Shown: positions 3,271-63,814 of the stretch, in pieces
How positions within the stretch are numbered: position 1 is the stretch's first letter
Layout: each line of letters opens with the position of its first letter
Origin: an uncultured Actinomycetes bacterium
GTDB lineage: Bacteria > Actinomycetota > Thermoleophilia > Gaiellales > Gaiellaceae
Assembly (NCBI GenBank): GCA_963788875.1
Contig: CAWBIQ010000014.1
Location: forward strand, 11,113 to 75,112
Length of the DNA stretch: 64,000 bases
Direction of reading: 5' to 3'
Position numbers and translations under genes: made by a program
The notes under the pieces: generated by a model
Database searches by the model: none
What the model saw: the letters and a program-made list of their open reading frames with translations, nothing else
Told to the model about the DNA's origin: nothing

Positions 3271-3621
3271 TTACTCCGGCGGCGGTGGCGGCGGTCCGCC
3301 GTGGGCGGTGAGATCGCCCATGCCCTGCAGGAACTCGTCACGTCCGAGCTCGCCGCGCGCGTAGCGCCAGCGCAGCACGTCGAGAGGATCGTGCCGGGGG
3401 CCGGCACCCGCGAAGGCGAAGTGCCTTGGTCCCGGCCCGTGCCAGCGGTGGCGGCGGCGGCCGGCGAACCGCGCGACGAGCATCGCTCCGACGGTGAGCA
3501 CGAGGAGCAGGACGAGCGCGAACGTCACCCAGGCGAGGGCATTCGGACGGTCCTGCTGGTAGTGGAGAGTCATGGGGGCGAAGCCGAAGCCGCCCCGCTG
3601 CTGAAACGGAGTGGGGTTCAT
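3271..3621 (-). CDS. SHOCT-domain membrane protein
   Basis: One TM helix (WVTFALVLLLVLTVGAMLV) and a C-terminal DVLRWRYARGELGRDEFLQGM, which is SHOCT-like. TACGCT-N6-ATG leaderless-type start. Confidence 0.7.
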   Translation of the reverse strand: MNPTPFQQRGGFGFAPMTLHYQQDRPNALAWVTFALVLLLVLTVGAMLVARFAGRRRHRWHGPGPRHFAFAGAGPRHDPLDVLRWRYARGELGRDEFLQGMGDLTAHGGPPPPPPE

Positions 3622-3759
3622 GGGTCGAGCGTACGGCCGGCGGCTAAGGGCTCGCTAAGGAGCAAGTTGCATCTGCGACCCGCGTTGCGTACGGTCGAAT
3701 GGCCAGTGCACGCTCACCTGATCAGGTTCCCGCGGCTGTCGCCGGTTCGTGAAACGAGC

Positions 3760-4617
3760 ATGCCGGAGCGGCTGTTCGCCGCTGCCGTCTTGGCCTACGC
3801 GTCCGTGTTCGTCGTGAACCTCGTCTACAGCCGACCGGGTCTCGGTCTCGGCCAGATCTTCTATCTGCCGATCGTGCTCGTCGCCCTCGCGAGCGGGCCG
3901 TTCGCAGGCGCCGGCGCGGGACTCTTCGCATTCGTGCTGTACGTGGTCACGCTCGTGTTCACGTCGCAGTTCGCTCACCACGGCATCGCGGAGATGCAGC
4001 TCTCGATCCGATTGGCGATGTTCACGATCGCCGGCGCGACGGTCGGCTACTTCTCGGCGCGAGGCCGCGGCATGATCCGCGACTCGCTTCACGTCCTCGA
4101 GGAGCTGCTCCTGATCGCGCGGCGCGACGTGAGCACGGGCGTCTCCACCGGTGCACGCTTTGCAGACGTCGTCGACCGCCAGCTCGGCCGCCGCCGGCCG
4201 GTCGTGCTGCTCGTCGGCGAGCTCCAGTCGGAGACGCGGCCGCTCTCGCTCCTGAAGGACGAGCGGCAGTTGCGCGACGCGCTGGCGCTCGTCGCCGGCC
4301 GGCTCGGGCCGGACGACGAGCTGGCTCGCATCGGTCCCTCGCAGATCGCCGTCGCGGCGGTCGGCCGCGACGCCCGCTGGGGCCGCGCCGCCGCCGCCGA
4401 GCTGGAAGAGACGCTGCGGGCATCCGGGAGCGACGCGACGTTCGGCTGGGCGGTATCGCCGGGCGACGGCGCGGACGTGCTCGCGCTCCTGTACGCAGCG
4501 GGGACGAAGCTCGCAGCCCGCCGGTTCGTGCGAGGCGACTGGCAGCCGTCGGCTGAGAGCGCGGGTCTCGTCGCGTCCGTCGAGGATCTCGCCGCGCACC
4601 GAGCGCGGGAGCGTTAG
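3760..4617 (+). CDS. Membrane protein with degenerate GGDEF-like C-terminal domain
   Basis: N-terminal TM helices (LFAAAVLAYASVFVVNLV, IFYLPIVLVALASGPFAGAG..) are followed by RDVSTGVSTGARF..VVLLVGEL..ARIGPSQIAV where RxGGDEF would sit. Only the last 285 codons of ORF 2659..4617 look coding. Confidence 0.55.
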   Translation: MPERLFAAAVLAYASVFVVNLVYSRPGLGLGQIFYLPIVLVALASGPFAGAGAGLFAFVLYVVTLVFTSQFAHHGIAEMQLSIRLAMFTIAGATVGYFSARGRGMIRDSLHVLEELLLIARRDVSTGVSTGARFADVVDRQLGRRRPVVLLVGELQSETRPLSLLKDERQLRDALALVAGRLGPDDELARIGPSQIAVAAVGRDARWGRAAAAELEETLRASGSDATFGWAVSPGDGADVLALLYAAGTKLAARRFVRGDWQPSAESAGLVASVEDLAAHRARER

Positions 4618-4862
4618 CGCCCGGCGGCCAGGGCGACGCGGCGCCCGCGGGCGTCGACGTACACATACGGGTGCTCGTAAAGCTCGAGCGCGTCGTCCTC
4701 GGGCGTCACGTCGAGCTCGACCACCTCGCCGGTCTCGTCGTCCTCGAGGACGACGGCTGCGCGGTGGGTGCGCCGGCTCCAGAAGAACGAGACGTGCGTC
4801 GACCCGGAGTCGCGGTGCGCGAGCTCCTTCGGATGTGCGTCGAAGCTCAGCCGGCGGATCAT
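4614..4862 (-). CDS. Small hypothetical protein (82 aa)
   Basis: Intact ORF with acidic, protein-like composition (VVLEDDETGEVVELDVTPEDDALELYEHPYVYVD). No recognisable family, SD or -10 box. Confidence 0.4.
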   Translation of the reverse strand: MIRRLSFDAHPKELAHRDSGSTHVSFFWSRRTHRAAVVLEDDETGEVVELDVTPEDDALELYEHPYVYVDARGRRVALAAGR

Positions 4863-7387: not shown

Positions 7388-7539
7388 GCAGCGCCTCCCT
7401 GTGTGGATCGGAGTCCGTGACTTGACGCACGAAGGTACTGCGCCAGGCGGACGTTTTCAAGACGGCGACCCGGCCCGGCGCGTTGGATCGGATTCCTCAA
7501 CACCCGGAGCTCGCGCCCGGCCACCGCCGACCGCGTTCC

Positions 7540-7545
7540 TATTCT
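7540..7545 (+). promoter_or_regulatory. -10-like hexamer TATTCT, 6 nt before ATG 7552 (leaderless-type)
   Basis: TATTCT-ccgggc-ATG with no SD. Confidence 0.45.
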
Positions 7546-7551
7546 CCGGGC

Positions 7552-8004
7552 ATGAACATCTACAAGTACGCCCCGCACCCGCACATAGCGCACCGTCGGG
7601 CACTGGGTCCCGTCAAGATCGCGGACCAGTACGAGCGCGGGAGCGGCTTCAGCCGCTTCAACACGATGCTCGCGCTCAAGGTCACCGCGATCGTCGGGAC
7701 GATGGTCGCCGCCTACCTCTTCACCGCACTGGCGCTCGTCAGCCTGCCCTCCGCGTTGAACAGCGGCAATCTGATCATCATCGTCGCCTGGATCGCGCAG
7801 ACGTTCCTTCAGCTCGTGCTCCTCCCCGTCATCATCGTCGGCCAGAACGTGCAGGCAGCTGCGTCGGACAAGCGCGCCGAGCAGACGTACCTGGACGCCG
7901 AGGCGGTCCTTCACGAGGCGCAGGAGATCCAGAAGCACCTCCTGGAGCAGGACAAGGTGCTCGGACAGCTGATCGCGAGTCTGGGCGCGGCAGGCGCACC
8001 CTAG
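7552..8004 (+). CDS. DUF1003-like two-TM membrane protein
   Basis: Two TM helices (VTAIVGTMVAAYLFTALALV, LIIIVAWIAQTFLQLVLLPVIIV) followed by GQNVQAAASDKRAEQTYLDAEAVLHE, which resembles the DUF1003 QNRQ..RD region. The start was chosen by the TATTCT-N6-ATG pattern. Confidence 0.6.
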   Translation: MNIYKYAPHPHIAHRRALGPVKIADQYERGSGFSRFNTMLALKVTAIVGTMVAAYLFTALALVSLPSALNSGNLIIIVAWIAQTFLQLVLLPVIIVGQNVQAAASDKRAEQTYLDAEAVLHEAQEIQKHLLEQDKVLGQLIASLGAAGAP

Positions 8005-8044
8005 GAGGTCGGCCCAGGCCCGGTCGGCGCACCCGACGCCGGTG

Positions 8045-8050
8045 TATGGT
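8045..8050 (+). promoter_or_regulatory. -10-like hexamer TATGGT, 6 nt before ATG 8057
   Basis: TATGGT-cgggcc-ATG with no SD. Confidence 0.45.
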
Positions 8051-8056
8051 CGGGCC

Positions 8057-9403
8057 ATGCTGACGCTCGACGAGCTGAGGGTGGACGTCGAGACCGGCGC
8101 CGTCGACACCGTCATCGCGGCGTTCACCGACATGCAGGGCCGGCTGATGGGGAAGCGGCTCGACGCGGAGTTCTTCCTCGAACGAGCTCGACGCCGGGCA
8201 CGCAGGTCGAGGGCTGCAACTACCTGCTCGCGCTCGAGATGGAGATGGACCCGGTGCCGGGCTACGCGATCGCGAGCTGGGAGACGCGGCTACGGCGACT
8301 TCGGGCTCCAGCCCGACCTCGGAGACGCTGCGGCGGATCCCGTGGCACGAGGCGACGGTGCTGGTGCTGTGCGACGTCGTCTGGCACGACGGCACGCCGG
8401 TCGCGCCGTCGCCGCGGCAGGTGCTGAAGGCGCAGGTCGCGAGGGCGCGCGCGCTCGGGCTACGAGCCGATGTTCGGCTCGGAGCTCGAGTTCTTCCTGC
8501 TTCCGCGAGAGCTACGCTCGAGGCGCACGCGAAGCACTACCACGACCTCACGCCGTCGGTGCCGTACATCCTCGACTACCACATCCTCGCCTCGAGCTAC
8601 GACGAGCCGTTCCTGCGCGAGGTGCGGCACGCGATGAAGGCGCCGGGATGGTCGTCGAGTCGTCGAAGGGCGAGGCGTGGCCGGGGCAGCACGAGATCAA
8701 CTTCCGCTTCGCCGACGCGGTGAAGCGCTGCGGACGACCACGTCGTCTACAAGACCGGGATCAAGGAGATCGCCTACCAGCACGGGCGTCTCGGTCACGT
8801 TCATGGCGAAGCCGGACCACGACGTGGGTCGGCTCGTCGTGCCACATCCACTCGTCGCTGTGGCAGGACGGCAAGGCGGCGTTCGCCGGCGAGTCGGACG
8901 TGTTCAAGCACTACCTCGCCGGCCAGATCGCCTGCGCGGCCGAGCTGGCGATCTTCCTCGCGCCGACGATCAACTCGTACAAGCGCTTCGCCGCGGGAAG
9001 CTGGGCGCCGACGACGCTCGCCTGGGGCCACGACAACCGCACGTGCGGCTTCCGCATCGTCGGACACGGCTCCTCGTTGCGCGCCGAGACGCGCATCCCG
9101 GGCGCCGACGCGAATCCGTATCTCGCGTTCGCGGCGCTGCTCGCCGCCGGGCTGTACGGGATCGAGCACGAGCTCGAGCTCGGGCCGGCGCTCGAGGGCA
9201 ATGCGTACGAGTCCGACGTGCAGCGCTTCCCGCACGCGCTGCGCGAGGCGATCGCGCGCGCTCGAGCACGGGCACGGTCGCGCGGCAGCTGCTCGGCGAC
9301 GAGGTGGTCGACCACTACCTGAACTACGCGCGCACCGAGCAGCGAGCTGTTCGACAAGACGGTGACGTGCTACGAGCGGGAGCGGATGTTCGAACGTGGC
9401 TGA
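8057..9403 (+). pseudogene. Glutamine-synthetase-like gamma-glutamyl-amine ligase (GlnA2/3/4 / PuuA-type), multiply frameshifted
   Basis: GS motifs are spread over 3 frames: MQGRLMGKRL, VEGCNYLLALEMEMDPVPGYAIASWE, RGYGDFGLQPDL, TLRRIPWHEATVLVL, SELEFFLF, GMVVESSKGEAWPGQHEINFRFADA, WVGSSCHIHSSLW, INSYKRFAAGSWAP..WGHDNRTCGFRIV..RAETRIPGADANPYLAFAA. There are at least 10 frame changes, and the stop TGA is at 9401-9403. Confidence 0.85.
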
Positions 9404-12856: not shown

Positions 12857-14653
<1,797 letters not shown>

Positions 14654-53240: not shown

Positions 53241-55202
53241 TTGGCCGCGCTCGGCCGCGTCGCGCTCCTTCTGAGCTTCGGTCTCGTCGCGTACGCGCTC
53301 GTCGGCGGCTCGTTCGCCGCGTACACGCGCCGGCGCCGGCTCGCCGTCTCGGCGCAGAACGCGCTCCTCGCAGCGTTCGGGACGACGCTCGTCGCCGCGG
53401 CGGTGCTGCTCTCGGCGCTGGCCCGGCACGACTTCTCCTTCGTCTACGTCGCCGCGCACACGAGCCGCTCGCTGCCGCTCGGCTACACCCTCTCCGCCTT
53501 CTGGGGCGGCCAGGAGGGGTCGCTCCTGCTCTGGCTCGTGATCCTCACCGGCTACGCGGCTCTGGCCGTGTGGCTGAACCGCCGCTCGCACCAGTTGATC
53601 GCCTGGGTCGTGCCGGTGCTCGGCGGCATCGCCCTCTTCTTCGCCTTCATGCTCTGCTTCGTCTCGAGCCCGTTCAAGCAGGCGGTTGCACCTGCAGACG
53701 GGGCGGGGATGGTGGCGAGCCTGCAGAACCCCTACATGCTCGCCCACCCGCCCATGCTCTACCTCGGCTACGTCGGGCTGACGATCCCGTTCGCGTTCGC
53801 GATGGGTGCGCTCCTCTCCGGGCGCACCGACGAGCGCTGGATCGTCGCGACGCGGCGCTGGACGCTCGCCGCGTGGACGTTCCTCGGCGTCGGCCAGCTG
53901 CTCGGCGCGCACTGGGCGTACGTCGAGATCGGCTGGGGCGGCTACTACGCGTGGGACCCGGTCGAGAACGCCGCGCTGATGCCGTGGCTCGCGGCGACCG
54001 CATTCCTGCACTCGGTGATGATCCAGGAGAAGCGCGGGATGCTGAAGGTCTGGAACATGGTGCTGGTCGCGCTCGCCTTCAACCTCTCGATCCTCGGCAC
54101 GTTCCTCACGCGCTCGGGTGTGGTCAACTCGATCCACTCGTTCTCGCAGAGCTCGATCGGCGGCTGGTTCCTCGGCTTCATCGTCGGCTGCGTCGTCTTC
54201 TCCGTCGGACTCATCTACCTGCGCCTCCCGCTGCTGCGCGCGCGGACGAAGCTCGAATCGCTCGTCTCGCGCGAAGCCACGTTCCTCTACAACAACCTCC
54301 TGCTCGTCGCGCTCGCGCTCACGATCCTCTGGGGCGTGATGTATCCGCTGCTGACGCAGGCCGTGACGGGCGAGACCCGCTCCGTGTCGAAGCCGTACTA
54401 CAACTTCTTCCTGCACAGCTTCGGTCTACCCCTGCTGCTGCTGATGGGGATCGGGCCGCTCGTCGCCTGGCGGCGGGCGTCGCTGCGCGCGCTCGGAAAG
54501 ACGTTCGCGATTCCGGCGGCCGCTTCGCTCGTCACCGGTGTCGCGCTCATCGCGGTCGGTCTCGGCAGCTCGACCCCCGGCCTGCTCGCCTACACCTTCT
54601 CCGCGTTCGTGCTCGCGTCGATCGTGCTCGAGTTCGTGCGCGGGTCGCTCGCCACAGGATCGCTCTGGCGGCTCGTAGGCAAGAACAGGCGCCGGTACGG
54701 GGGCTACGTCGTCCACGCGTCGGTGCTCCTCCTCGCGATCGGGATCGCCGGCTCGAGCGCGTACCAGACGATCCGTGAGCGCGGCCTGAAGGTGGGCCAG
54801 TCGATGGAGGTCGCCGGGTACACGCTCACGTACCGGTCGCTCGAGAACACACAGCATTCGAACTCGCAATCGACGAGCGCGACGGTCGACGTCACGCGCG
54901 GCGGCTCGCATGTCGCCACGCTCCACCCCGGGAAGAGCTTCTTCCCGGTCGAGCAGGACTTCGGCAACGACGTCTCGATCTACCACGACCCGCGCAACCT
55001 CGGCGACGTCTTCACCATCGCCGACCAGTTCGACAAGAACGGCACGCTCTTCCTCAAGGTGCTCGTGAAGCCGCTCGTGAACCTCGTCTGGGCGGCTGGC
55101 CTCCTCTTCGTCTTCGGCTCGCTCGTCACCCTCTGGCCGGATGCGGTCGAGCAGCGCCGGCTGGCCCAGCGCTACGAGGGTGCCGCTGCGGCGAGGACGT
55201 GA
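53241..55202 (+). CDS. ccmF: Cytochrome c-type biogenesis heme lyase CcmF
   Basis: WWD domain GAHWAYVEIGWGGYYAWDPVENAALMPWL and conserved His-containing TM segments, with about 15 TM helices. TTG start 1 nt after the ccmE stop. Confidence 0.9.
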   Translation: MAALGRVALLLSFGLVAYALVGGSFAAYTRRRRLAVSAQNALLAAFGTTLVAAAVLLSALARHDFSFVYVAAHTSRSLPLGYTLSAFWGGQEGSLLLWLVILTGYAALAVWLNRRSHQLIAWVVPVLGGIALFFAFMLCFVSSPFKQAVAPADGAGMVASLQNPYMLAHPPMLYLGYVGLTIPFAFAMGALLSGRTDERWIVATRRWTLAAWTFLGVGQLLGAHWAYVEIGWGGYYAWDPVENAALMPWLAATAFLHSVMIQEKRGMLKVWNMVLVALAFNLSILGTFLTRSGVVNSIHSFSQSSIGGWFLGFIVGCVVFSVGLIYLRLPLLRARTKLESLVSREATFLYNNLLLVALALTILWGVMYPLLTQAVTGETRSVSKPYYNFFLHSFGLPLLLLMGIGPLVAWRRASLRALGKTFAIPAAASLVTGVALIAVGLGSSTPGLLAYTFSAFVLASIVLEFVRGSLATGSLWRLVGKNRRRYGGYVVHASVLLLAIGIAGSSAYQTIRERGLKVGQSMEVAGYTLTYRSLENTQHSNSQSTSATVDVTRGGSHVATLHPGKSFFPVEQDFGNDVSIYHDPRNLGDVFTIADQFDKNGTLFLKVLVKPLVNLVWAAGLLFVFGSLVTLWPDAVEQRRLAQRYEGAAAART

Positions 55203-55528
55203 TGGCGCTCGCGCTCGCCCTTGGTGCCATGCTCGCCGCCCTTGTCGTCGTGTTCGTCGCGCGGCCGTTCCTGCGCGAGCCGGTTCCCCTGAGCGACCGC
55301 CTCGACGAGCCCGGCGCGGTCGACCGGTTGCGACTCGAGCGGCTCGAGGAGCGCGACCGCGCGCTCTCGGCGCTCAAGGAGCTCGAGTTCGACCATCGCA
55401 CCGGGAAGGTCACCGACGACGACTACCGCGAGCAGGTCGGACCCCTGCGGCGGCGCGCCGCGGAGACCCTGCGGGCGCTAGAACCCCGAGCCGACGCCCG
55501 GCCGGCGCAGGTCGGCAGCAGCCGCTAG
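55199..55528 (+). CDS. Membrane-anchored coiled-coil protein (109 aa), coupled to ccmF
   Basis: The GTG overlaps the ccmF stop (GTGA). One N-terminal TM (ALALALGAMLAALVVVFVA) is followed by ERLEERDRALSALKELEFDHRTGKVTDDDY. There is no CxxC motif, so it is not a CcmG/H. Confidence 0.55.
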   Translation: MMALALALGAMLAALVVVFVARPFLREPVPLSDRLDEPGAVDRLRLERLEERDRALSALKELEFDHRTGKVTDDDYREQVGPLRRRAAETLRALEPRADARPAQVGSSR

Positions 55529-55551
55529 GCGGGCGCCGGGGAGGGAGGGCT

Positions 55552-56760
55552 GTGCGTGCGCCGAAAGTGTCCGCTATGGCGCGCCGCGTCCTGCTCCTGC
55601 TTGTCCTCGCGTTGGGGCTTGCGGCGCCTGCGCTCGCGGGTGACGGCCTCGGACAGCAGAAGGCGACCCTCGACGCGAAGCTCGCCGCGGTCCAGGCGAA
55701 GATCGCGCGCGAGCATGCGCGCGAGTCGGCGCTGAACGGACAGATCGGCGGGCTCACGACGCAGATCCGCTCGCTCGAGGCGCGCGTCGGGGACGTGTCG
55801 AGCAAGCTCTCGGCGCTCCAGGCCGACGTCGCCTTGCACCAGCGACGGCTCGCGAAGCTCAACGAGCTCTACCGCCTGCAGACGACCCGCTTCCGCAACC
55901 TCCGGCGCGAGTACACGATCTCGGTGCAGCGGCTCGACCAGCGGCTCGTCACGATCTACAAGCAGAGCAGCCCCTCGACGGTGGAGATCCTCCTCGCGGC
56001 GCGGAGCTTCCAGGACGTCCTCGACGAGTTCGACTATCTCGGCGCGATCGCGGCGCAGGACAAGAAGGTGGCCGCCCAGGTGGCGACGGCGAAGCGGGCC
56101 GTGGAGCGCGCGCGGGCCAGGACCGCGGCCATGCGCCGGAGCTTGCAGCAGGAGACGCGCGTGATCGATGCGCGCGCGCAGCAGCAGGCGATCCTGCGCG
56201 GCGAGCTGCTCTCGAGTCGCGACAAGCTGGCGACCACACGGGCAGGCAAGTCGCACGCGCTCGTCGCGACGAAGGCGCAGGAGCAGGCAGAGATCCAGGA
56301 GTCGCAGGCGATCCAGGCAGCGAGTGCGGCGATCGCCGCGAAGCTGCAGGCAGGCTCGTCGACCTCCAACCAGACCGCGGCGACCCCGTCCGCCGCCGGG
56401 TTCATCTGGCCGGTGTCGGGCCCGATCACGAGCCCCTTCGGCATGCGCTGGGGAACGCTCCACCCGGGCATCGACATCGGCGTCCCGACGGGTACGCCCA
56501 TCCACGCGGCGGCGGCCGGCACCGTCGTCTACTGCGGCTGGGAGGAGGGCTACGGCAACCTCGTCGTGATCGACCATCACAACGGCCTCGGCACGGCGTA
56601 CGGTCACCAGTCGCGCATCGCCGTCAGCTGCGGCCAGAACGTGAGCCAAGGTGACATCATTGGCTACTCAGGCTGCACGGGCTTCTGCACGGGGCCCCAC
56701 GTTCACTTCGAAGTCAGAGTGAACGGAAGCCCGGTCGACCCCCTCGGCTATCTCCCGTGA
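55552..56760 (+). CDS. Secreted coiled-coil M23 metallopeptidase (EnvC-like murein hydrolase/activator)
   Basis: SD GGAGGGAGG precedes GTG 55552; an alternative ATG is at 55576. A signal peptide and a long Q/A/L coiled coil are followed by the M23 core HPGIDIGVPTGTPIHAAAAGTV..YGNLVVIDH..GYSGCTGFCTGPHVHFEV. Confidence 0.85.
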   Translation: MRAPKVSAMARRVLLLLVLALGLAAPALAGDGLGQQKATLDAKLAAVQAKIAREHARESALNGQIGGLTTQIRSLEARVGDVSSKLSALQADVALHQRRLAKLNELYRLQTTRFRNLRREYTISVQRLDQRLVTIYKQSSPSTVEILLAARSFQDVLDEFDYLGAIAAQDKKVAAQVATAKRAVERARARTAAMRRSLQQETRVIDARAQQQAILRGELLSSRDKLATTRAGKSHALVATKAQEQAEIQESQAIQAASAAIAAKLQAGSSTSNQTAATPSAAGFIWPVSGPITSPFGMRWGTLHPGIDIGVPTGTPIHAAAAGTVVYCGWEEGYGNLVVIDHHNGLGTAYGHQSRIAVSCGQNVSQGDIIGYSGCTGFCTGPHVHFEVRVNGSPVDPLGYLP

Positions 56761-56808: not shown

Positions 56809-57441
56809 CTACACGTTCAACAACCGCAGGTCGGGAAGCTCGCGCCAGCGCTCGTCGAGGTCGAACCCGTAGCCCACGAACAGCTCGTCCGGCACGACGA
56901 AGCCGACGTAGCGGACGGGCAGGTCGTCGACCAGCCGGCGGTAGGGCCGGTCGAGCAGGGTCACCGCGGCGATCGACCGTGGCTTCCGCAGCTCGAACGT
57001 CCGCACGAGGTAGTTGAGCGTGAGCCCTGTGTCGATCACGTCCTCGACGACGATGACGTCGCGGTCGAGGATGTCCGCATCGAGGTCCTTGAGCACGCGG
57101 ATCTGCTCGTGGCCGCCCATCTGTGCGCTGCCGTAGCCGGCCAGCTCGACGAAGTCGAGGCCGTGGAGCATCGGCATCGCCCGCGAGAGGTCCGCGAGGA
57201 AGACGAGGCTCGCCTTCAGCGAGCCGACGAGGATGGGCTCGCGACCCGCGTAGTCGCGGGTGATCTCGGCCCCGAGCTCGCGCACGCGCACGCCGAGCTC
57301 GTCAGCCGACAGGTAGACCTCCCCGATGCGCGGGTCCGCGGCTGCTCCTCTACGACGCCAGGTCGAGGTGGAAGTGCTGCGCGAGGCGCTCGAGGTCCCG
57401 CTTGTAGAAGAGCTTGATCTTGACCTCGGGATAGCGCTCAC
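56809..57441 (-). CDS. hpt: Hypoxanthine(-guanine) phosphoribosyltransferase; start codon unresolved
   Basis: LVGSLKASLVFLADLSRAM, the PRPP motif VIVVEDVIDTGLTL, and VGFVVPDELFVGYGFDLDERWR. The conserved part begins around 57330. The only in-frame start is GTG 57441, which would overlap the upstream gene by 92 nt. Confidence 0.75.
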   Translation of the reverse strand: MSAIPRSRSSSSTSGTSSASRSTSTSTWRRRGAAADPRIGEVYLSADELGVRVRELGAEITRDYAGREPILVGSLKASLVFLADLSRAMPMLHGLDFVELAGYGSAQMGGHEQIRVLKDLDADILDRDVIVVEDVIDTGLTLNYLVRTFELRKPRSIAAVTLLDRPYRRLVDDLPVRYVGFVVPDELFVGYGFDLDERWRELPDLRLLNV

Positions 57442-57718
57442 GCAGCTTTCGGAGCTTCCGGTTCTTGCGGGTGACGAGCGACTGCTTCATCACCGTGATC
57501 TCGACGTAGAGGTCCTGGTCCGGCAAGTAGAAGTCCGGCGCGAACGCCTCGACGACGCGCCCGTCCTCGTCCTCCTCGAGGACGAACGTGGTCGGCTCGT
57601 ACTGCCACGGCACGCCGTAGTAGTCGAGGACCTTCGCGCACTCGAGCTCCGCCTGGCTGGCGAAGCGCGGCGGCTCGGTGCCCCGATATACCTGGAACGC
57701 AGGGGTGTCGAGCCCCAT
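57350..57718 (-). CDS. Hypothetical protein with PD-(D/E)xK nuclease-like motif (122 aa)
   Basis: AELECAKVLDYYGVPWQYEP..FAPDFYLPDQDLYVEITVMKQ..KNRKLRKLRERYPEVKIKLFY. The fold assignment comes from the motif only. Confidence 0.55.
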   Translation of the reverse strand: MGLDTPAFQVYRGTEPPRFASQAELECAKVLDYYGVPWQYEPTTFVLEEDEDGRVVEAFAPDFYLPDQDLYVEITVMKQSLVTRKNRKLRKLRERYPEVKIKLFYKRDLERLAQHFHLDLAS

Positions 57719-57803
57719 CTGGAGCCACGGTAGCGACCGGGTCGGACGGCCCCGAGGACGCTTTCTCCGCAGGGCGCTCGAGACGAAGTGGTAAACAAGG
57801 GCG

Positions 57804-58427
57804 ATGGCACGGATCAGCCTCGTCCCCCAGAAGCGCGAGTTCTTCGATCTTTACAACCGGGCCGCCGCGAACGCGGTCGCGATCGCAGAGGCCCTGACCG
57901 AGCTGCTGGAGCGCTTTCCGGAGGGGAGCGCCGAGCGGGCGCGCGAGATCAAGGAGCTCGAGCACGAGGGCGACCGGCTCACGCACGAGGTCGTCGACCT
58001 GCTCAACCGCACGTTCGTGACGCCTTTCGACCGGGACGACATGTACCGGCTCGCGGGTGTGCTCGACGACATCTGCGACCACATCGACGAAGCCGCCGGC
58101 AAGGTCGTCGACTACGGCGTGCGCGACGTCCGCGAGCAGGCACGCCGTCAGGCGGACATCATCCACCGCTCGGCGAAGAAGCTCTGCGAGGCGATCAACC
58201 GGCTCGAGGGCTTCAAGGACTCCCGGCGCCAGCTGATCGAGCTGCGTGAGCTGGAGGACGAGGGCGATCGGATCTCGCACGACGCGATCGCCGAGCTGTT
58301 CACCGGCAAGGTCGACGCGCTCACGCTCGTGCGCTGGAAGGACATTCACGAGCAGCTCGAGGAAGCGGTCGACGCCTGCGAGAACGCGGCCGACGTGCTC
58401 GAAGCGATTCTTGTCAAGAACCGCTGA
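57804..58427 (+). CDS. DUF47/PhoU-like phosphate transport accessory protein (TIGR00153-type)
   Basis: FFDLYNRAAANAVAIAEAL, IKELEHEGDRLTHEV, FVTPFDRDDMYRL and ELEDEGDRISHDAI. It is paired with the downstream PiT gene. Confidence 0.8.
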   Translation: MARISLVPQKREFFDLYNRAAANAVAIAEALTELLERFPEGSAERAREIKELEHEGDRLTHEVVDLLNRTFVTPFDRDDMYRLAGVLDDICDHIDEAAGKVVDYGVRDVREQARRQADIIHRSAKKLCEAINRLEGFKDSRRQLIELRELEDEGDRISHDAIAELFTGKVDALTLVRWKDIHEQLEEAVDACENAADVLEAILVKNR

Positions 58428-58433
58428 CACGGT

Positions 58434-59426
58434 GTGAGCGGCACTTTGCTGCTCGCGGTCGTCGTCGTCGTCGGGCTCGGCTTCGATTTCACAAACGGCT
58501 TTCACGACACCGCCAACTACGTAGCGACGTGGGTCGGTACGCGCGCGCTCGCGCCGCGAACAGCGGTCGCGGTGTCGGCCGCGGCGAACCTCGCCGGCGC
58601 GTTCGTGACGACCGCCGTCGCGAAGACGGTCGCCCAGGGGATCATCGACACCGGTCTCGCCACGAACGAGACGGTGCTCGCCGCGCTTGTCGGCGCCATC
58701 GTGTGGAACCTCGTGACGTGGCGGCTGGGGCTGCCGTCGAGCTCGACCCACGCGCTCATCGGCGGGCTCGTCGGGGCGGCGCTCGTCCAGTCCGGCGCCG
58801 GCGGCGTTCAGTGGCGCGGCGTCTGGGAGAAGGTCGTGCTGCCCGGGGCCGTGTCGCCGGTCGCCGGCTTTGCCGTTGCGTTCGTGCTCGTCGTCCTCGT
58901 CTACCGGTTGTTCTCATGGCTGACGCCGGGCGTCGCGAACCGCAGCTTCCGCCTGGGACAGCTCGTCACGGGGACATGGGTGGCGTTCACGCACGGCGCG
59001 AACGACGCGCAGAAGACGATGGGCGTGATCGCGCTCGCTCTCTACACGAACGGGAGCATCTCGCACTTCTACGTGCCCATCTGGGTGAAGGTGACGGCCG
59101 GCCTGACCATCGCCGCCGGCACGTACGCCGGCGGGTGGCGGATCATCCGGACGCTCGGCCAGCGGATCTACAAGCTCCAGCCGGAGCACGGGTTCGCCGC
59201 CCAGCTTGCCGCCGGCTCGACCCTCTTCGTCGGCACCCATTTCGGCTTTCCGATCTCGACGACGCACGTGGTCACCGGCTCGGTGATGGGCGCGGGCGCG
59301 ACTCGCCGTTTCTCGGCGGTCAAGTGGGGCGTGGCGGGCAGCATCGGCATCGCCTGGCTCCTGACCCTTCCCGCGGCCGCCCTCGTCTCCGCCGCGCTCT
59401 ATTACCCGGTACACGCCGTGTTCTAG
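58434..59426 (+). CDS. pit: Inorganic phosphate transporter, PiT family
   Basis: GFDFTNGFHDTANYVAT, PSSSTHALIGGLVGA, FTHGANDAQKTMG and ISTTHVVTGSVMG. Confidence 0.9.
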   Translation: MSGTLLLAVVVVVGLGFDFTNGFHDTANYVATWVGTRALAPRTAVAVSAAANLAGAFVTTAVAKTVAQGIIDTGLATNETVLAALVGAIVWNLVTWRLGLPSSSTHALIGGLVGAALVQSGAGGVQWRGVWEKVVLPGAVSPVAGFAVAFVLVVLVYRLFSWLTPGVANRSFRLGQLVTGTWVAFTHGANDAQKTMGVIALALYTNGSISHFYVPIWVKVTAGLTIAAGTYAGGWRIIRTLGQRIYKLQPEHGFAAQLAAGSTLFVGTHFGFPISTTHVVTGSVMGAGATRRFSAVKWGVAGSIGIAWLLTLPAAALVSAALYYPVHAVF

Positions 59427-59429
59427 TCT
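59424..59429 (+). promoter_or_regulatory. -10-like hexamer TAGTCT on the pit stop codon, 6 nt before ATG 59436
   Basis: TAGTCT-tccgcc-ATG. This is a possible internal leaderless promoter for the phosphoesterase-cDPGS-2PGK-glpX operon. Confidence 0.45.
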
Positions 59430-59435
59430 TCCGCC

Positions 59436-60242
59436 ATGCCGTCGACGAACAGTGGGCGACCGTTCACCATCGTCCAGTTGTCCGATCTGCATTGCGGCCA
59501 GCAGTTCTTCCTGGCGAACCTGCTCGAGCGTGCTGTGTCCGAGGTGAACGACCTCGAGCCGGACGTGGTCGTCGTTTCGGGCGACCTCACGTCGCACGGG
59601 TTCAAGGACGAGTACGCGCTCGCGAAGGGCTACCTCGACGGCATCGAGTGCGACTCGATGGTCGTGATCCCGGGTAACCACGACTCGCGCAACGTCGGCT
59701 ACGTCCATTTCGAGGAGTTGTTCGGCGAGCGAAACTCCGTGCTGCGGGTCGGCGCTGCGACGATCGTCGCCGTCGACTCGACCGAGCCCGATCTCGACAA
59801 CGGGCAGATCGGCCGCGGCCGCTACAGGTGGATCGAGGAGCAGTTCGCGGCGCCTGCCGACCTGAGGGTGTTCGTCCTCCACCACCATCTGCTGCCCGTG
59901 CCGGGCACGGGAAGGGAGCGAAACATCGTCAACGACGCCGGCGACGCGCTCGAATGCCTCCAGCGCGCCGGCGTCGATCTCGTCCTCTGTGGGCACAAGC
60001 ACGTGCCGTACGCCTGGCGGCTCGAGGATCTGTTCGTCGTGAATGCGGGCACCGTCTCCTCGGCGCGGCTGAGAGGCCACGGCCGTCCCTGCTACAACGT
60101 CGTCGAGGTCTCCGGTAGCCACGTCGACGTCTGGCGCAAGTATCCGTTCCACGAGCAGGAGCGCATCATCCAGTTCTCGACGGACTCGAAGACGTTCGAG
60201 AAGTACACGGCCCGCATCGAGGGCGAGGTGACGTACCGGTGA
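59436..60242 (+). CDS. Calcineurin-like metallophosphoesterase
   Basis: IVQLSDLHCG, VVVSGDLTSHG, VIPGNHD, VLHHHL and LCGHKHV form the canonical MPE motif series. Confidence 0.85.
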   Translation: MPSTNSGRPFTIVQLSDLHCGQQFFLANLLERAVSEVNDLEPDVVVVSGDLTSHGFKDEYALAKGYLDGIECDSMVVIPGNHDSRNVGYVHFEELFGERNSVLRVGAATIVAVDSTEPDLDNGQIGRGRYRWIEEQFAAPADLRVFVLHHHLLPVPGTGRERNIVNDAGDALECLQRAGVDLVLCGHKHVPYAWRLEDLFVVNAGTVSSARLRGHGRPCYNVVEVSGSHVDVWRKYPFHEQERIIQFSTDSKTFEKYTARIEGEVTYR

Positions 60243-61414
60243 GGGCGATCGTGCTGATCGACGGCGAGCACTACGCGCCGGTCGTGCGCGCGGCGCTCGC
60301 GGCGCTGCCGTACGACGTCGCCGGGGCGCTGTTCGTCGGCGGGACGGAGAAGCTGCGCGGAGGCGACGACTACGGCGTGCCGCTCGTGACGACGCTCGAC
60401 GAGGTGGAGGCGGACCTCGTCTTCGACCTCTCGGACGAGCCGGTGCTCGGCCCGCGCGAGCGCTTCCTCTGGGCGTCGCGATCGCTCGCGCTCGGACTGC
60501 CGTACATCGGCGCCGACTTCCGTTTCGAGCCTCCCGTGCTGCACGAGGCGAGGGTGCCGTCGCTCGCCGTGATCGGGACCGGCAAGCGCGTCGGGAAGAC
60601 GGCGGTGGCCGGCCACGCCGCCCGCGTGCTCGCCCGCGACCGGGACGTCGTCGTCGTCTCGATGGGGCGGGGAGGCCCGCCCGAGCCGGAGCTGCGGCGG
60701 ACGGCGCCCACGGTCGACGAGTTGATCGACCTCGCCCGCGCCGGGCGCCACGCGGCGTCCGACTACCTCGAGACAGCGGTCTTTGCCGGCGTGCCGACCG
60801 TCGGCTGCCGCCGTGCGGGTGGCGGGCTGGCCGGCGCGACGGTCGACTCGAACGTCCTGGAGGGCGTGCACGCCGCCGCCGTGCTCGAGCCCGACCTGCT
60901 CGTGCTCGACGGGAGCGGCGCCGCACTGCCGCCGATTGCGGCTCAGGCGCGCATTCTCGTGACGAACGGAGCGCACGACGTCCGCGAGGGCCTCAACGCC
61001 TATCGCGTGCTCGTCTCCGACCTCGTCGTCGACACCGGCGGCGCCGACCACGACGCGGTCAGGGAGATCAAGGACGTGCCCGTGGTGCGCGCGGAGCTCC
61101 GCCTGCGCCCGGCCGAGTCGCTCCGCGGCCGCCGCACGGCCGTCTTCACGACCGGCCCGGCACCCACCGGCCATCTCGACGGCGACGTCGTTCACGTCTC
61201 CCGCAACCTGGCTCAGCGCGACACGCTGCGGGCCGAGCTCGGGCAGGTGGACGCGGAGGTGTACCTCGTGGAGCTGAAGGCGGCCGCGATCGACGTCGTG
61301 GCCGAGGCGGCGCTCGCGCGTGGGGCCGAGCTCGTCCTCGCGGGAAACGACGTCGTCGCCGACGGCCTCGACGAGCTCCTGCCCGGACTCGTCCCCATGG
61401 GGGCGCGCGCATGA
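60239..61414 (+). CDS. cpgS: Cyclic 2,3-diphosphoglycerate synthetase-like P-loop protein
   Basis: N-terminal IVLIDGEHYAPVV and P-loop AVIGTGKRVGKTAVAG, then VVVSMGRGGP and LDGSGAALPP. This matches my memory of the cDPGS family (Methanothermus cpgS). GTGA overlap with the upstream gene. Confidence 0.6.
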   Translation: MRAIVLIDGEHYAPVVRAALAALPYDVAGALFVGGTEKLRGGDDYGVPLVTTLDEVEADLVFDLSDEPVLGPRERFLWASRSLALGLPYIGADFRFEPPVLHEARVPSLAVIGTGKRVGKTAVAGHAARVLARDRDVVVVSMGRGGPPEPELRRTAPTVDELIDLARAGRHAASDYLETAVFAGVPTVGCRRAGGGLAGATVDSNVLEGVHAAAVLEPDLLVLDGSGAALPPIAAQARILVTNGAHDVREGLNAYRVLVSDLVVDTGGADHDAVREIKDVPVVRAELRLRPAESLRGRRTAVFTTGPAPTGHLDGDVVHVSRNLAQRDTLRAELGQVDAEVYLVELKAAAIDVVAEAALARGAELVLAGNDVVADGLDELLPGLVPMGARA

Positions 61415-62295
61415 CCGAGGCGCGGCGGATCATGCCGCTGCCGCTCGGCGGTGAGCACGGCCTGCCCTACTCGCGCGGCCTGATGGCGCGCGCGCTGATC
61501 GCCGTCGGCGTTGCGCCGGACCGGGCCTACGTGCTCGCCCGGCGCGTGGCCGACGAGCTCGAGGCGCGCGGCTGCGACGTCGTGGAGCTCGAACGGCTCG
61601 GCACGCTGGCGATCGAGAGCCTCGGGGAGGTCGAGGGCGGAGAGGCCGTGCGGCAGCTGCGCCGCTACCAGCAGCTGCGCGAGCTCGAGCAACCGCTCGT
61701 CATCCTCGTCGGAGGCGCCACCGGCACCGGCAAATCGACGATCGCGACGGAGATCGCGTACCGGCTCGGCATTACCCGCGTGACGTCCACGGACTTCGTC
61801 CGCGAGACGATGCGTGCGTTCTTCTCGCACGAGTTCATGCCGTCGATCCACTACTCGAGCTTCGAGGCGGACGCGGCCGCACCCGGCGCGGACCACCCGC
61901 TCATCGCCGGCTTTCTCGAGCAGTCGCGCCAGGTGCTCGTGGGTGTGCGCGCCTCGATCGAGCGCGCCTTGCACGAGGGCTGGTCGATGGTCCTCGAGGG
62001 CGTCCATCTTGTTCCCGGGCTCCTTCCGCCGCTCGACGACAATGCGCTCGTGACGGCGTGTGTCGTGAAGATCGAGGACGAGACCGCGCACGCGCAGCAT
62101 TTCTTCATGCGCGAGGCCGGCACCGAGCGGCCGATGACGAGGTATCTCGACCGGTTCCGGGAGATCCGGCGCCTCCAGGAATTCATCGTCGAGCAGGCCG
62201 AACGTGAAGACGTGCCGGTGATCGAGAACGAGAACGCCGAGCGCGCGACCCGTGCCGTCGCCGATCTCGTCCTCTCGGCTGCGGAGCGCGTGTGA
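61411..62295 (+). CDS. 2-phosphoglycerate kinase-like protein
   Basis: ATP-cone-like N-terminus (LPYSRGLMARALIAVGVAPDRAYVLARRVADEL), P-loop LVGGATGTGKSTIATEIAYRLGI..VTSTDFVRETMR, and EGVHLVPG. ATGA overlap with the upstream gene. Confidence 0.65.
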   Translation: MTEARRIMPLPLGGEHGLPYSRGLMARALIAVGVAPDRAYVLARRVADELEARGCDVVELERLGTLAIESLGEVEGGEAVRQLRRYQQLRELEQPLVILVGGATGTGKSTIATEIAYRLGITRVTSTDFVRETMRAFFSHEFMPSIHYSSFEADAAAPGADHPLIAGFLEQSRQVLVGVRASIERALHEGWSMVLEGVHLVPGLLPPLDDNALVTACVVKIEDETAHAQHFFMREAGTERPMTRYLDRFREIRRLQEFIVEQAEREDVPVIENENAERATRAVADLVLSAAERV

Positions 62296-63308
62296 CCGAC
62301 ACCCACATCGAGCCGGCCCCCGAGCCGGCGCCCACGGGCCAGCAGGAGCCCTGCCTGTGCCAGTCCTACCTGCGCGCAACGGAGCGGGCGGCGCTCGCCG
62401 CGGCGCGCTGGCTCGGCCGTGCCGACCAGACTGCGGCCGAGGAAGCCGCCGCGAGCGAGATGCGCGCGATGCTCGAGCTGCTGCCGATCCACGGGCGCGT
62501 CGTGCTCGGCTCCGTCGACGACGTGGGCGGCCTGCGTGTGGGCGCGTCGTTCGGCGCCGGCGGCGTCGAGGTCGATCTCGCGCTCGACCCGCTCGAGGGC
62601 CGCGGCGTCGTCGCGCGCGGCGGCAACGGCGCGATGTCGATGATCGCCGTCGGTGAGCCGGGCCACCTGATGACGCTGCCGCAGATGTACATGCGGAAGA
62701 TGGCGGTCGGCCCGCGCGCACGCGGCTCGATCGATCTGCTGCGACCGATGGGCGAGAACATCGAGGCGATCGCCGAGGCGTTCGGCCGCCGCGTCAACGA
62801 TGTGACGACGATCGTGCTCGACCGGCCGCGCCACCACGACCTGATCGAGGAGATCCGCGCCGCCGGTGCCCGGATCAAGCTGATCCAGGACGGCGACGTC
62901 ACCTCGTCGATCTCCGCGTCCATCCGCGGCACGAACGACCACCTCGCGGTCGGGATCGGCGGCACGCGCCAGGCCGTCCTCTCCGCGGCTGCGCTTCGCT
63001 GCCTCGGCGGCGAGCTGCAGGCGCAGTTCTGGCCGACCTCGCGCGGCGAGATCGACGAGCTGCGCGAGCTCGGGATCGAGGACTACGGGCGCGTCTTCCG
63101 CACCGAGGATCTCGCGCCGGGCGAGGTGATCGTGGCCGCGACCGGCGTCTCCAACGGCGACCTGCTCCGCGGCGTGCGGTACCTCGCCGACAGCGCCCGC
63201 ACCCATTCGCTGCTCATGTGCACCCGCTGCAACTGGGTGCGTTTCGTCGACGGCATCCACTTCTTCGCCCGCGAGCGGCGCGAAGAGGTGCGGCTGCTCG
63301 GCTACTGA
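62292..63308 (+). CDS. glpX: Class II fructose-1,6-bisphosphatase
   Basis: ATERAALAAARWLGR, VDLALDPLEG, MIAVGEPG, YMRKMAVGP, VLDRPRH..IEEIR.AGARI.LI.DGDV, GIGGTRQAV..AAALRCLGGE and TGVSNGDLLRGV. GTGA overlap with the upstream gene. Confidence 0.9.
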   Translation: MTDTHIEPAPEPAPTGQQEPCLCQSYLRATERAALAAARWLGRADQTAAEEAAASEMRAMLELLPIHGRVVLGSVDDVGGLRVGASFGAGGVEVDLALDPLEGRGVVARGGNGAMSMIAVGEPGHLMTLPQMYMRKMAVGPRARGSIDLLRPMGENIEAIAEAFGRRVNDVTTIVLDRPRHHDLIEEIRAAGARIKLIQDGDVTSSISASIRGTNDHLAVGIGGTRQAVLSAAALRCLGGELQAQFWPTSRGEIDELRELGIEDYGRVFRTEDLAPGEVIVAATGVSNGDLLRGVRYLADSARTHSLLMCTRCNWVRFVDGIHFFARERREEVRLLGY

Positions 63309-63490: not shown

Positions 63491-63497
63491 CGGGCCA

Positions 63498-63507
63498 TGG
63501 CTACACT
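63498..63507. promoter_or_regulatory. Back-to-back divergent -10 boxes sharing a TA (TGGCTACACT)
   Basis: The minus-strand TAGCCA (63503-63498) lies 7 nt from GTG 63490. The plus-strand TACACT (63502-63507) lies 7 nt from ATG 63515. Confidence 0.45.
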
Positions 63508-63514
63508 GGCCCTC

Positions 63515-63814
63515 ATGCCCAGCAAGAACGAGGTGCTCGAGGTGCTCCGCCAGGTCGAGGATCCCGAGCTCGGGATGGACATCGTCGACCTCGGCCTGCT
63601 CTACGACGTCGAGATCGAGGGCCCGAAGGTGAAGATCACCTACAGTCTCACCTCGATGGGCTGCCCCGCCGGGCCGCTGATCGCGGGGGATATCGACCGG
63701 GCCGCGCGCGAGGTGCCCGGCGTGGAGGAGGTCGACCTCGAGCTCGTCTTCGACCCGCCGTGGACGCCGGACCGGATGTCCGACGACGCGAAGTTCATCC
63801 TCGGCTTCGGCTAG
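63515..63814 (+). CDS. DUF59 / SufT-like iron-sulfur cluster assembly factor
   Basis: VLEVLRQVEDPELGMDIVDLGLLY, TSMGCPAGP and FDPPWTPDRMS. The start may instead be ATG 63497 as in the ORF track. Confidence 0.8.
   Translation: MPSKNEVLEVLRQVEDPELGMDIVDLGLLYDVEIEGPKVKITYSLTSMGCPAGPLIAGDIDRAAREVPGVEEVDLELVFDPPWTPDRMSDDAKFILGFG

Follow-up and report, generated by a model that had tools for sequence, protein, structure and literature searches.

Biosynthesis of the phosphate-rich solute cyclic 2,3-diphosphoglycerate (cDPG) is known from the methanogens Methanothermus fervidus and Methanothermobacter, and involves two enzymes, a 2-phosphoglycerate kinase (2PGK) and a cDPG synthetase (cDPGS). A hydrolase that converts cDPG to 2,3-diphosphoglycerate (2,3-DPG), with membrane-bound and soluble activity and inhibited by inorganic phosphate (Pi) and K+, has been reported for Methanobacterium thermoautotrophicum (van Alebeek 1994; Sastry 1992; both as summarized in PMC1224877). 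Here we analyzed a 64-kb stretch of DNA (the window; contig CAWBIQ010000014.1) from an uncultured soil bacterium of the Gaiellaceae (Actinomycetota) that encodes full-length homologs of both biosynthetic enzymes. Their genes lie in a predicted, translationally coupled four-gene operon at 59436-63308, preceded by the gene for a calcineurin-type metallophosphoesterase (MPE) and followed by that for the class II fructose-1,6-bisphosphatase GlpX. On the sequence evidence presented below, we consider it rather probable that MPE-cDPGS-2PGK-GlpX is a bacterial operon for cDPG synthesis and turnover, in which the MPE would act as the return enzyme.

The locus resembles the methanogen system in its enzymes and differs from it in host and gene arrangement. 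Like the M. fervidus enzyme, the cDPGS homolog has the Walker A motif GTGKRxGKT, the trans-subunit pair E45/K46, the Mg ligands T150/D208, and E404/K406 (M. fervidus numbering), whereas it is shorter (391 aa versus 460 aa). The 2PGK homolog may also share the layout of the methanogen 2PGK, with a weakly matching ATP-cone-like N-terminus ahead of a P-loop. In Methanothermobacter the cDPGS gene (cpgS) stands alone and the MPE ortholog is encoded elsewhere, beside pho genes, while in the window both cDPG genes share one predicted leaderless operon with MPE and GlpX. Unlike the methanogens, the host is a bacterium, and the one cultured representative of its order is mesophilic.

Homologs of both cDPG biosynthetic enzymes

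An initial annotation of the window had described six co-directional genes as a single unit. All six open reading frames (ORFs) are present exactly where it placed them, as are the 4-nt overlaps (GTGA at 60239-60242, ATGA at 61411-61414 and GTGA at 62292-62295), the peptides IVLIDGEHY, GTGKRVGKTAV and GGATGTGKST in the translations, and a TAGTCT hexamer discussed below. The three overlaps join the last four genes, all on the forward strand: MPE (ORF3; 59436-60242; PF00149, 73.4 bits, cut-off 21.5), the cDPGS homolog (ORF4; 60239-61414), the 2PGK homolog (ORF5; 61411-62295) and GlpX (62292-63308; PF03320, 346 bits). GlpX clears the equivalog threshold of TIGR00330 (268.4 versus 259.3 bits). We considered whether it might instead be a 2,3-DPG phosphatase and rejected this, because it passes the fructose-1,6-bisphosphatase threshold and nothing supports another substrate.

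ORF4 matches the cDPGS structures 8ORK, 8ORU and 9SXB in the PDB over its full length (phmmer, E=1.9e-61; residues 3-372 against 6-430 of the 8ORU chain) and is 42% identical to M. fervidus cDPGS over 369 columns. The structure of that enzyme implicates E45/K46 from the partner subunit, the Walker A K145, R146, K149 and T150, the Mg ligand D208, and T353, E404 and K406 (PMC10690619). In a pairwise alignment all ten of these ligand residues are kept in ORF4, as E37/K38 (within GGTEK), K116, R117, K120, T121, D175, T305, E345 and K347. Eight of the ten are invariant across 45 diverse homologs, and D175 and T305 are found in at least 90% of them. Two adenosine contacts of the M. fervidus enzyme deviate: E305 is replaced in ORF4 (A269), and an equivalent of P335 could not be mapped. 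Given the full-length match, the identity and the complete set of residues, we accept ORF4 as a genuine member of the cDPGS family, as the initial annotation had proposed. Direct Pfam and NCBIfam scans of ORF4 were empty; the libraries used lack PF27272 (CpgS_N), so this is not evidence against homology, and a 100% identical database protein (P0001) carries that domain. Searching a contig index for an exact copy of ORF4 gave no match.

The family is large, comprising 982 clusters at 50% identity (E<=1e-3), and a relative is encoded in at least 554 species-level genomes. It is retained in the mesophilic Methanobacterium and Methanobrevibacter. A neighbor-joining tree of 29 cDPGS sequences is star-like, and the Gaiellales clade is not nested inside the Methanobacteriales; we draw no conclusion about horizontal gene transfer from it. 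Recognition of the homology is not new as such. In the JGI and NCBI pipelines these bacterial proteins already carry the name "(cyclic) 2,3-diphosphoglycerate synthetase", which is also applied in Bipolaricaulota, Thermococcus and Borrarchaeum, so automated annotation has captured it.

ORF5 was called 2PGK-like in the initial annotation, which holds at the level of homology; it falls short of equivalog status. The match to NF003259 is nearly full length (269.9 bits, E=2.9e-80, profile positions 13-289 of 306) and lies below the 343-bit cut-off; NF008994 gives 271 bits against a cut-off of 603. An ortholog from a non-Gaiellales contig, L083, is likewise under the NF003259 cut-off (312.8 versus 343). 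The P-loop GGATGTGKST is present, and the ATP-cone match is weak (Pfam, E=0.0028, below cut-off), while the Thermococcus 2PGK ortholog has a recorded ATP-cone match. We identified no relative of ORF5 in the PDB. With 35-42% identity, ORF5 also resembles the products of the genes next to cDPGS in Thermococcus, in other Actinomycetota and in an Asgard archaeon.

Genomic context was assessed by scanning for loci with a 12-sequence cDPGS alignment. The best 80 loci were inspected, all of them from Gaiellales/Thermoleophilia and with 58-87% cDPGS identity, and their core gene order was scored by tblastn. A 2PGK gene adjoins cDPGS in 78 of these 80 loci, as it does in Thermococcus, the Asgard archaeon and the non-Gaiellales contigs L083, L087, L088, L089 and L091-L094. 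Thus, ORF5 is a 2PGK homolog, strongly supported by its context, rather than a certified equivalog.

Conservation of the operon in Gaiellales

The closest relatives of the window proteins are from Gaiellaceae and Gaiellales metagenome-assembled genomes (MAGs). As the initial annotation had anticipated, the gene order is kept in relatives: MPE, cDPGS and 2PGK occur together in 77/80 Gaiellales loci, and GlpX directly follows 2PGK in 70 of the 73 loci with enough flanking sequence. Of the three loci in which the MPE-cDPGS-2PGK triad is not complete, two are cut by contig ends, about 390 nt 5' of cDPGS (L043) and just past cDPGS (L054). In the third (L015, 9144-10003), from a long-read MAG, the MPE is split over two overlapping frames, either by a frameshift error or as a pseudogene. 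This is the only locus with a non-intact MPE, and we rejected the reading that the gene is missing there, as the frameshifted copy is present. Start and stop codons overlap by 4 or 1 nt at 65/75 MPE/cDPGS, 56/65 cDPGS/2PGK and 59/66 2PGK/GlpX junctions, or about 87% of the three pooled.

The two genes upstream of the operon behave differently. They encode a DUF47 protein of the PiT accessory type (PhoU_div, TIGR00153; 57804-58427, forward strand; PF01865, 83.2 bits, cut-off 24.4) and a PiT/PHO4 inorganic phosphate transporter (58434-59426, forward strand; PF01384, 309 bits), the usual two-gene combination in which a low-affinity Pi transporter is accompanied by a PhoU-like accessory protein. 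Both are present in only ~22/80 related loci, and they lie immediately 5' of MPE in only about 15-17 of 72. Where they do, PiT and MPE are separated by 9-34 nt and never overlap. Elsewhere the slot is empty or holds other genes. In the window, unlike in a typical DUF47-PiT pair, the unit directly adjoins the cDPG operon, whose −10 element contains the PiT stop codon, an arrangement found in a minority of relatives. The six genes are therefore two units, of four and two genes, rather than one. DUF47-PiT is a separate phosphate-uptake unit placed just upstream in some Gaiellales lineages, including that of the window; it is an accessory insert outside the core operon. The description of the cDPG genes as wired directly to Pi import thus applies to a lineage-specific arrangement and does not define the operon.

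The slot between MPE and an upstream 122-aa ORF is a variable insertion site. A gene for an M32-like carboxypeptidase of ~500 aa (HEFGHG) occupies it in L036, L040, L051 and L079 (about 7500-9200), and one for an alpha/beta hydrolase lies between PiT and MPE in L007 and L011 (about 8300-9200). The 122-aa ORF itself (57350-57718, reverse strand) has no family assignment beyond a weak Phage_endo_I match (E=0.0025). Across Gaiellales it is conserved at 67-91% identity and invariably accompanies HGPRT on the upstream side of the cDPG operon. A TACCGT hexamer precedes its ATG by about 8 nt.

A conserved promoter element and a predicted leaderless transcript

The hexamer TAGTCT, a −10 element of the TANNNT class, lies at 59424-59429 on the forward strand, 6 nt (tccgcc) before the MPE ATG at 59436, and the TAG with which it begins is also the stop codon of pit. 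In actinobacteria, a TANNNT −10 element at 6-7 nt before the start codon, which leaves no room for a Shine-Dalgarno leader, is a signature of a leaderless transcript. Among the Gaiellales loci, TANNNT occurs exactly at −12 to −7 of the MPE start in 40/70 and within ±2 nt in 57/70, against a background of 0.00063 per position. The hexamer is mostly TAGACT or TACACT, independent of the gene lying upstream. The same test gave 0/79 before cDPGS, 0/78 before 2PGK and 4/67 before GlpX. Both the hexamer and the start/stop overlaps described above go beyond chance. This conservation relative to background and to the controls indicates that the −10 box of the initial annotation is real in the comparative sense, and implies an mRNA starting at or near 59436. 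Since the hexamer stands at the MPE start and none precedes cDPGS or 2PGK, MPE-cDPGS-2PGK-GlpX is probably transcribed as one leaderless mRNA.

The element is visible only by comparative alignment. A scan for the sigma-70 consensus detected no promoter, and the one terminator predicted is at chance level and on the opposite strand. An Rfam scan of the whole 64-kb window showed no riboswitch or leader near the cluster; its sole match was a single tRNA gene at 12857-12930.

A possible promoter was also noted for the DUF47-PiT unit. The motif TGnTA(A/G/C)ACA lies just 5' of the DUF47 start (57789-57797, forward strand), and TG.TA.A is conserved at 80% or more in an alignment of 23 intergenic regions between the 122-aa ORF and DUF47. 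Its hexamer ends in A, with an exact TANNNT match in 0/22, and we tentatively regard it as an extended −10 element.

These observations bear on whether DUF47-PiT, and perhaps GlpX, simply happen to lie beside the cDPG genes, without functionally connecting them to phosphate uptake or gluconeogenesis, a possibility to which we give an even chance. It would account for the minority occurrence of DUF47-PiT, for the unrelated genes found in its slot and for the promoter hexamer that separates the pair from MPE without any overlap, and synteny extends over the entire region throughout the order. GlpX fits this explanation less well: it overlaps the 2PGK stop codon at 59/66 junctions, no −10 element precedes it in 63/67 loci, and in other Actinomycetota its position is taken by another sugar-phosphate enzyme, fructose-6-phosphate (F6P) aldolase. 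A link to phosphate is also found independently of the Gaiellales, in Methanobacteriales, where the MPE ortholog adjoins PhoU and pst genes (see below).

A metallophosphoesterase subfamily linked to cDPGS in both domains

The MPE motifs DxH, GD, GNH[DE], H and GHxH are all present in ORF3, and in the subfamily alignment the metal ligands D17, H19, D50, N81, H82, H149/H150, H187 and H189 are invariant. Also invariant are a signature particular to the subfamily, HHHLLPVPGTGRER, and R99, R162 and R213. Among 25 members from Actinomycetota, Methanobacteriales and Asgard archaea, the elements NVG..FE, R99, DSxxPD, HHHLLPxPxTGRER, N..GT and R213 do not vary. Subfamily members from these three groups match at E=1e-32 to 1e-108. 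The window MPE is 54% identical to the MPE of L083, 48% to that of L089, 31% to both halves of a tandem MPE from an Asgard archaeon (E=6e-36 and 2e-32) and 38% to the 262-aa Methanothermobacter protein P0468 (E=3e-68).

Outside Gaiellales, genomic contexts were sampled singly, eight from the cDPGS side and two bacterial ones from the MPE side, the latter via homologs of the Asgard half. L083 and L089 share the order thrB..MPE-cDPGS-2PGK-rho; both contigs are AT-rich and show the lysA-hom-thrC-thrB ... rho-rpmE-prfA order of actinobacteria. The triad is found in L087 as well. Both contexts sampled from the MPE side read thrB-MPE-cDPGS-2PGK-F6P aldolase-rho, with 4- or 1-nt overlaps at MPE/cDPGS and cDPGS/2PGK. 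In the Asgard contig L085, genes for a GDPD glycerophosphodiesterase, cDPGS and 2PGK lie in this order, and two copies of this MPE type, joined in tandem, come after them. On this Borrarchaeum-like contig (3271-8067) the tandem MPE is a 505-aa protein, and a PF01663 phosphodiesterase is encoded nearby.

Glycolytic or gluconeogenic genes recur beside cDPGS: GlpX in Gaiellales, F6P aldolase in L091-L094 and a TAL/FSA-family gene in L083. Phosphoglycerate mutases of the iPGM or apgM type occur near cDPGS in L081, L088 and L083 (the apgM-type gene of the last at 3577-4752). Where no MPE is adjacent, cDPGS is coupled to iPGM in Bipolaricaulota (L081/L082, 99-6887) and to an apgM-type mutase in L088 (3565-7080). 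The Bipolaricaulota cDPGS follows an ABC transporter with a SBP_bac_11-type binding protein.

Methanothermobacter, which accumulates cDPG and for which cDPG hydrolase activity has been reported (PMC1224877), carries the MPE orthologs P0468 and P0455. The P0468 gene is followed by a 204-aa gene and a gene for a helix-turn-helix (HTH)-PhoU regulator, with pstS-pstS-pstC-pstA-pstB-phoU a few kb downstream. The same block, with the pst operon beyond, was found in 35 Methanobacteriales-like metagenome loci wherever the flank allows (63-98% MPE identity), and no cDPGS or 2PGK gene lies within 9 kb of the MPE in these 35 loci. This placement fits the role of cDPG in phosphate and energy storage that has been proposed (PMC10690619), and the independent linkage to Pho genes argues for a genuine connection between the MPE and phosphate. 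The ~204-aa gene (L090, 8001-10446; L095-L128) has no Pfam or NCBIfam match and may be a further player in cDPG or phosphate metabolism.

It could be that 2PGK and cDPGS make cDPG and the MPE, a class-III-type cyclic-nucleotide or other phosphodiesterase, regulatory or unrelated, merely shares their operon. The closest described MPEs are Rv0805 (a cyclic-nucleotide phosphodiesterase), CpdA/Icc and GpdQ, with which the window MPE shares the predicted fold and the dimetal ligand motifs. Rv0805 and GpdQ are its nearest solved relatives both by sequence and by fold: an AlphaFold2 model (pLDDT 88) is a compact alpha/beta structure that matches them at Foldseek E=1e-16 to 1e-15 (TM 0.62-0.68, 19-22% identity). 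The JGI label on MPE homologs is 3',5'-cAMP phosphodiesterase CpdA/Icc. In four of the eight contexts sampled from the cDPGS side the MPE is away from cDPGS, namely Bipolaricaulota (cDPGS-iPGM), Thermococcus (MGS-cDPGS-2PGK), L088 (2PGK-cDPGS-apgM) and Methanothermobacter (cpgS alone). However, Rv0805 and GpdQ share no more than about 20% of residues with the window MPE and match it at sequence E-values of only about 1e-10, far from the values within the subfamily, and the described enzymes have neither the invariant signature of the subfamily, with its extra Arg, Asp and Glu, nor the genomic association with cDPGS/2PGK. That association holds in both domains of life and in differing gene orders, and the Methanobacteriales MPE adjoins Pho genes rather than cyclase or signaling genes. 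We therefore regard this explanation as unlikely.

ORF3 is thus a member of a distinct MPE subfamily, defined by sequence and linked to cDPGS/2PGK, and the best available candidate for the gene of the cDPG/2,3-DPG hydrolase. The candidacy, first suggested in the initial annotation, gains support from the linkage in distant Actinomycetota and Asgard archaea and from the Methanothermobacter ortholog. The step proposed for the MPE is the one described for the Methanobacterium hydrolase, for which the ortholog in the phosphate-regulon neighborhood of Methanothermobacter would be a candidate. More tentatively, and at somewhat less than even confidence, the subfamily may be the missing cDPG hydrolase in general. 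cDPG would then be a widespread small-molecule reserve of phosphate, energy and carbon instead of a peculiarity of hyperthermophilic methanogens. It would be built and drained through the MPE-cDPGS-2PGK cassette in Gaiellales, other Actinomycetota and Asgard archaea, with a tie to Pho genes in the methanogens and, in some Gaiellales, to PiT.

Proposed pathway and alternatives

In the proposed pathway, 2PGK would phosphorylate 2-phosphoglycerate to 2,3-DPG and cDPGS would close the intramolecular phosphoanhydride in an ATP-driven reaction, giving cDPG at a cost of two ATP. The co-translated MPE would be the return step, either opening the cDPG ring to 2,3-DPG or dephosphorylating 2,3-DPG; it would free Pi and give the carbon back to 2- or 3-phosphoglycerate, from where GlpX could pull it into gluconeogenesis. 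We infer that the chief function of a cDPG pool in Gaiellales would be to buffer phosphate, energy and carbon, with protection against osmotic stress or desiccation as a possible further role. Thermoprotection, which the initial annotation names for cDPG of hyperthermophilic methanogens, is unlikely to be its purpose here, as the only cultured Gaiella, the sole cultured member of its order, was grown at 37 °C (PMC6741124) and Gaiellales are thus probably mesophilic.

With the genes for synthesis and breakdown in one operon, control of the balance between them would need to be post-translational, possibly through Pi, which is reported to inhibit the methanogen hydrolase activity. A functional analogy is offered by the ppk-ppx operon of Escherichia coli, in which the builder and the degrader of a phosphate-rich reserve are encoded together and their balance is set post-translationally. 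The protein families and the chemistry are unrelated, the reserve there being a polymer instead of a small cyclic pyrophosphate.

Several points weigh against a cDPG synthesis and turnover operon. ORF5 fails both NCBIfam 2PGK equivalog cut-offs, and the 2PGK-like superfamily includes kinases with other substrates, such as mevalonate-3-phosphate 5-kinase. The whole neighborhood, from HGPRT and the 122-aa ORF to SufT, is syntenic within Gaiellales, so that conservation of the operon is partly inherited gene order, and the MPE is not adjacent to cDPGS in the four lineages named above. Co-expression of a synthase and a hydrolase would be a futile cycle unless regulated. The Methanothermobacter hydrolase is reported as membrane-bound (PMC1224877), while the MPE models as a compact alpha/beta protein, for which peripheral association is possible. 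Finally, cDPG is still called exclusive to hyperthermophilic methanogens (PMC10690619, PMC12136491), and we found no report of bacterial cDPG in the literature searched.

Some of these points would also suit an alternative in which no cDPG solute accumulates: the pair would either act on a related substrate or provide 2,3-DPG, which might for instance serve phosphoglycerate mutase as cofactor or regulator, with the MPE keeping the intermediate low. The sub-threshold scores of the 2PGK homolog, the mutases that are frequent neighbors of cDPGS in other lineages, the growth of cultured Gaiella at 37 °C, with no obvious need for a thermoprotectant (PMC6741124), and the lack of reports of bacterial cDPG are all consistent with it. 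Yet the cDPGS residues that contact 2,3-DPG and stabilize the cyclization transition state (E45, K46, K145, R146 and D208) are all kept, a dedicated cDPGS would be superfluous if 2,3-DPG were the end product, and mesophilic Methanobacterium and Methanobrevibacter also keep the enzyme. We consider this alternative improbable, even more so than a different substrate for the MPE, and favor synthesis and turnover of cDPG by the products of the operon.

The initial annotation knew of no characterized bacterial version of such a module and of no gene assigned to the hydrolysis step, and nothing in the literature searched contradicts this. No paper found there connects cDPGS with Actinobacteria, with soil bacteria or with a gene for the hydrolase, and the Gaiella occulta genome paper does not mention cDPG genes. 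That literature thus appears to contain neither the operon in bacteria nor its predicted leaderless organization nor, most notably, the MPE as a candidate hydrolase shared between domains.

Other genes around the operon

Downstream of GlpX is a SufT/FeS_assembly_P gene (63497-63814), whose start is probably the ATG at 63515 rather than 63497. TACACT at 63502-63507 lies 7 nt before this ATG, which suggests another leaderless unit; the TANNNT test was positive before SufT in 33/50 relatives. Upstream, at 53241-56760, translations point to genes resembling those for cytochrome c maturation. The first encodes a CcmF-like membrane protein of 653 aa that contains the motif WGGYYAWDPVEN; after it come a small ORF resembling CcmH and a gene for a coiled-coil peptidase of the M23/LytM type.

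Implications

If Gaiellales make cDPG, the biology of this solute would shift from thermoprotection to phosphate and energy buffering. Gaiellales are widely detected in soil metagenomes, and a phosphorus reserve other than polyphosphate would enter models of soil phosphorus cycling. cDPG is currently valued as an "extremolyte" for biotechnology, and these bacteria would then offer mesophilic, oxygen-tolerant enzyme sources for its production. For bacteria and Methanothermobacter alike, the MPE offers a concrete candidate for the degradation gene that has been missing, and its confirmation would close a 30-year gap in the pathway.

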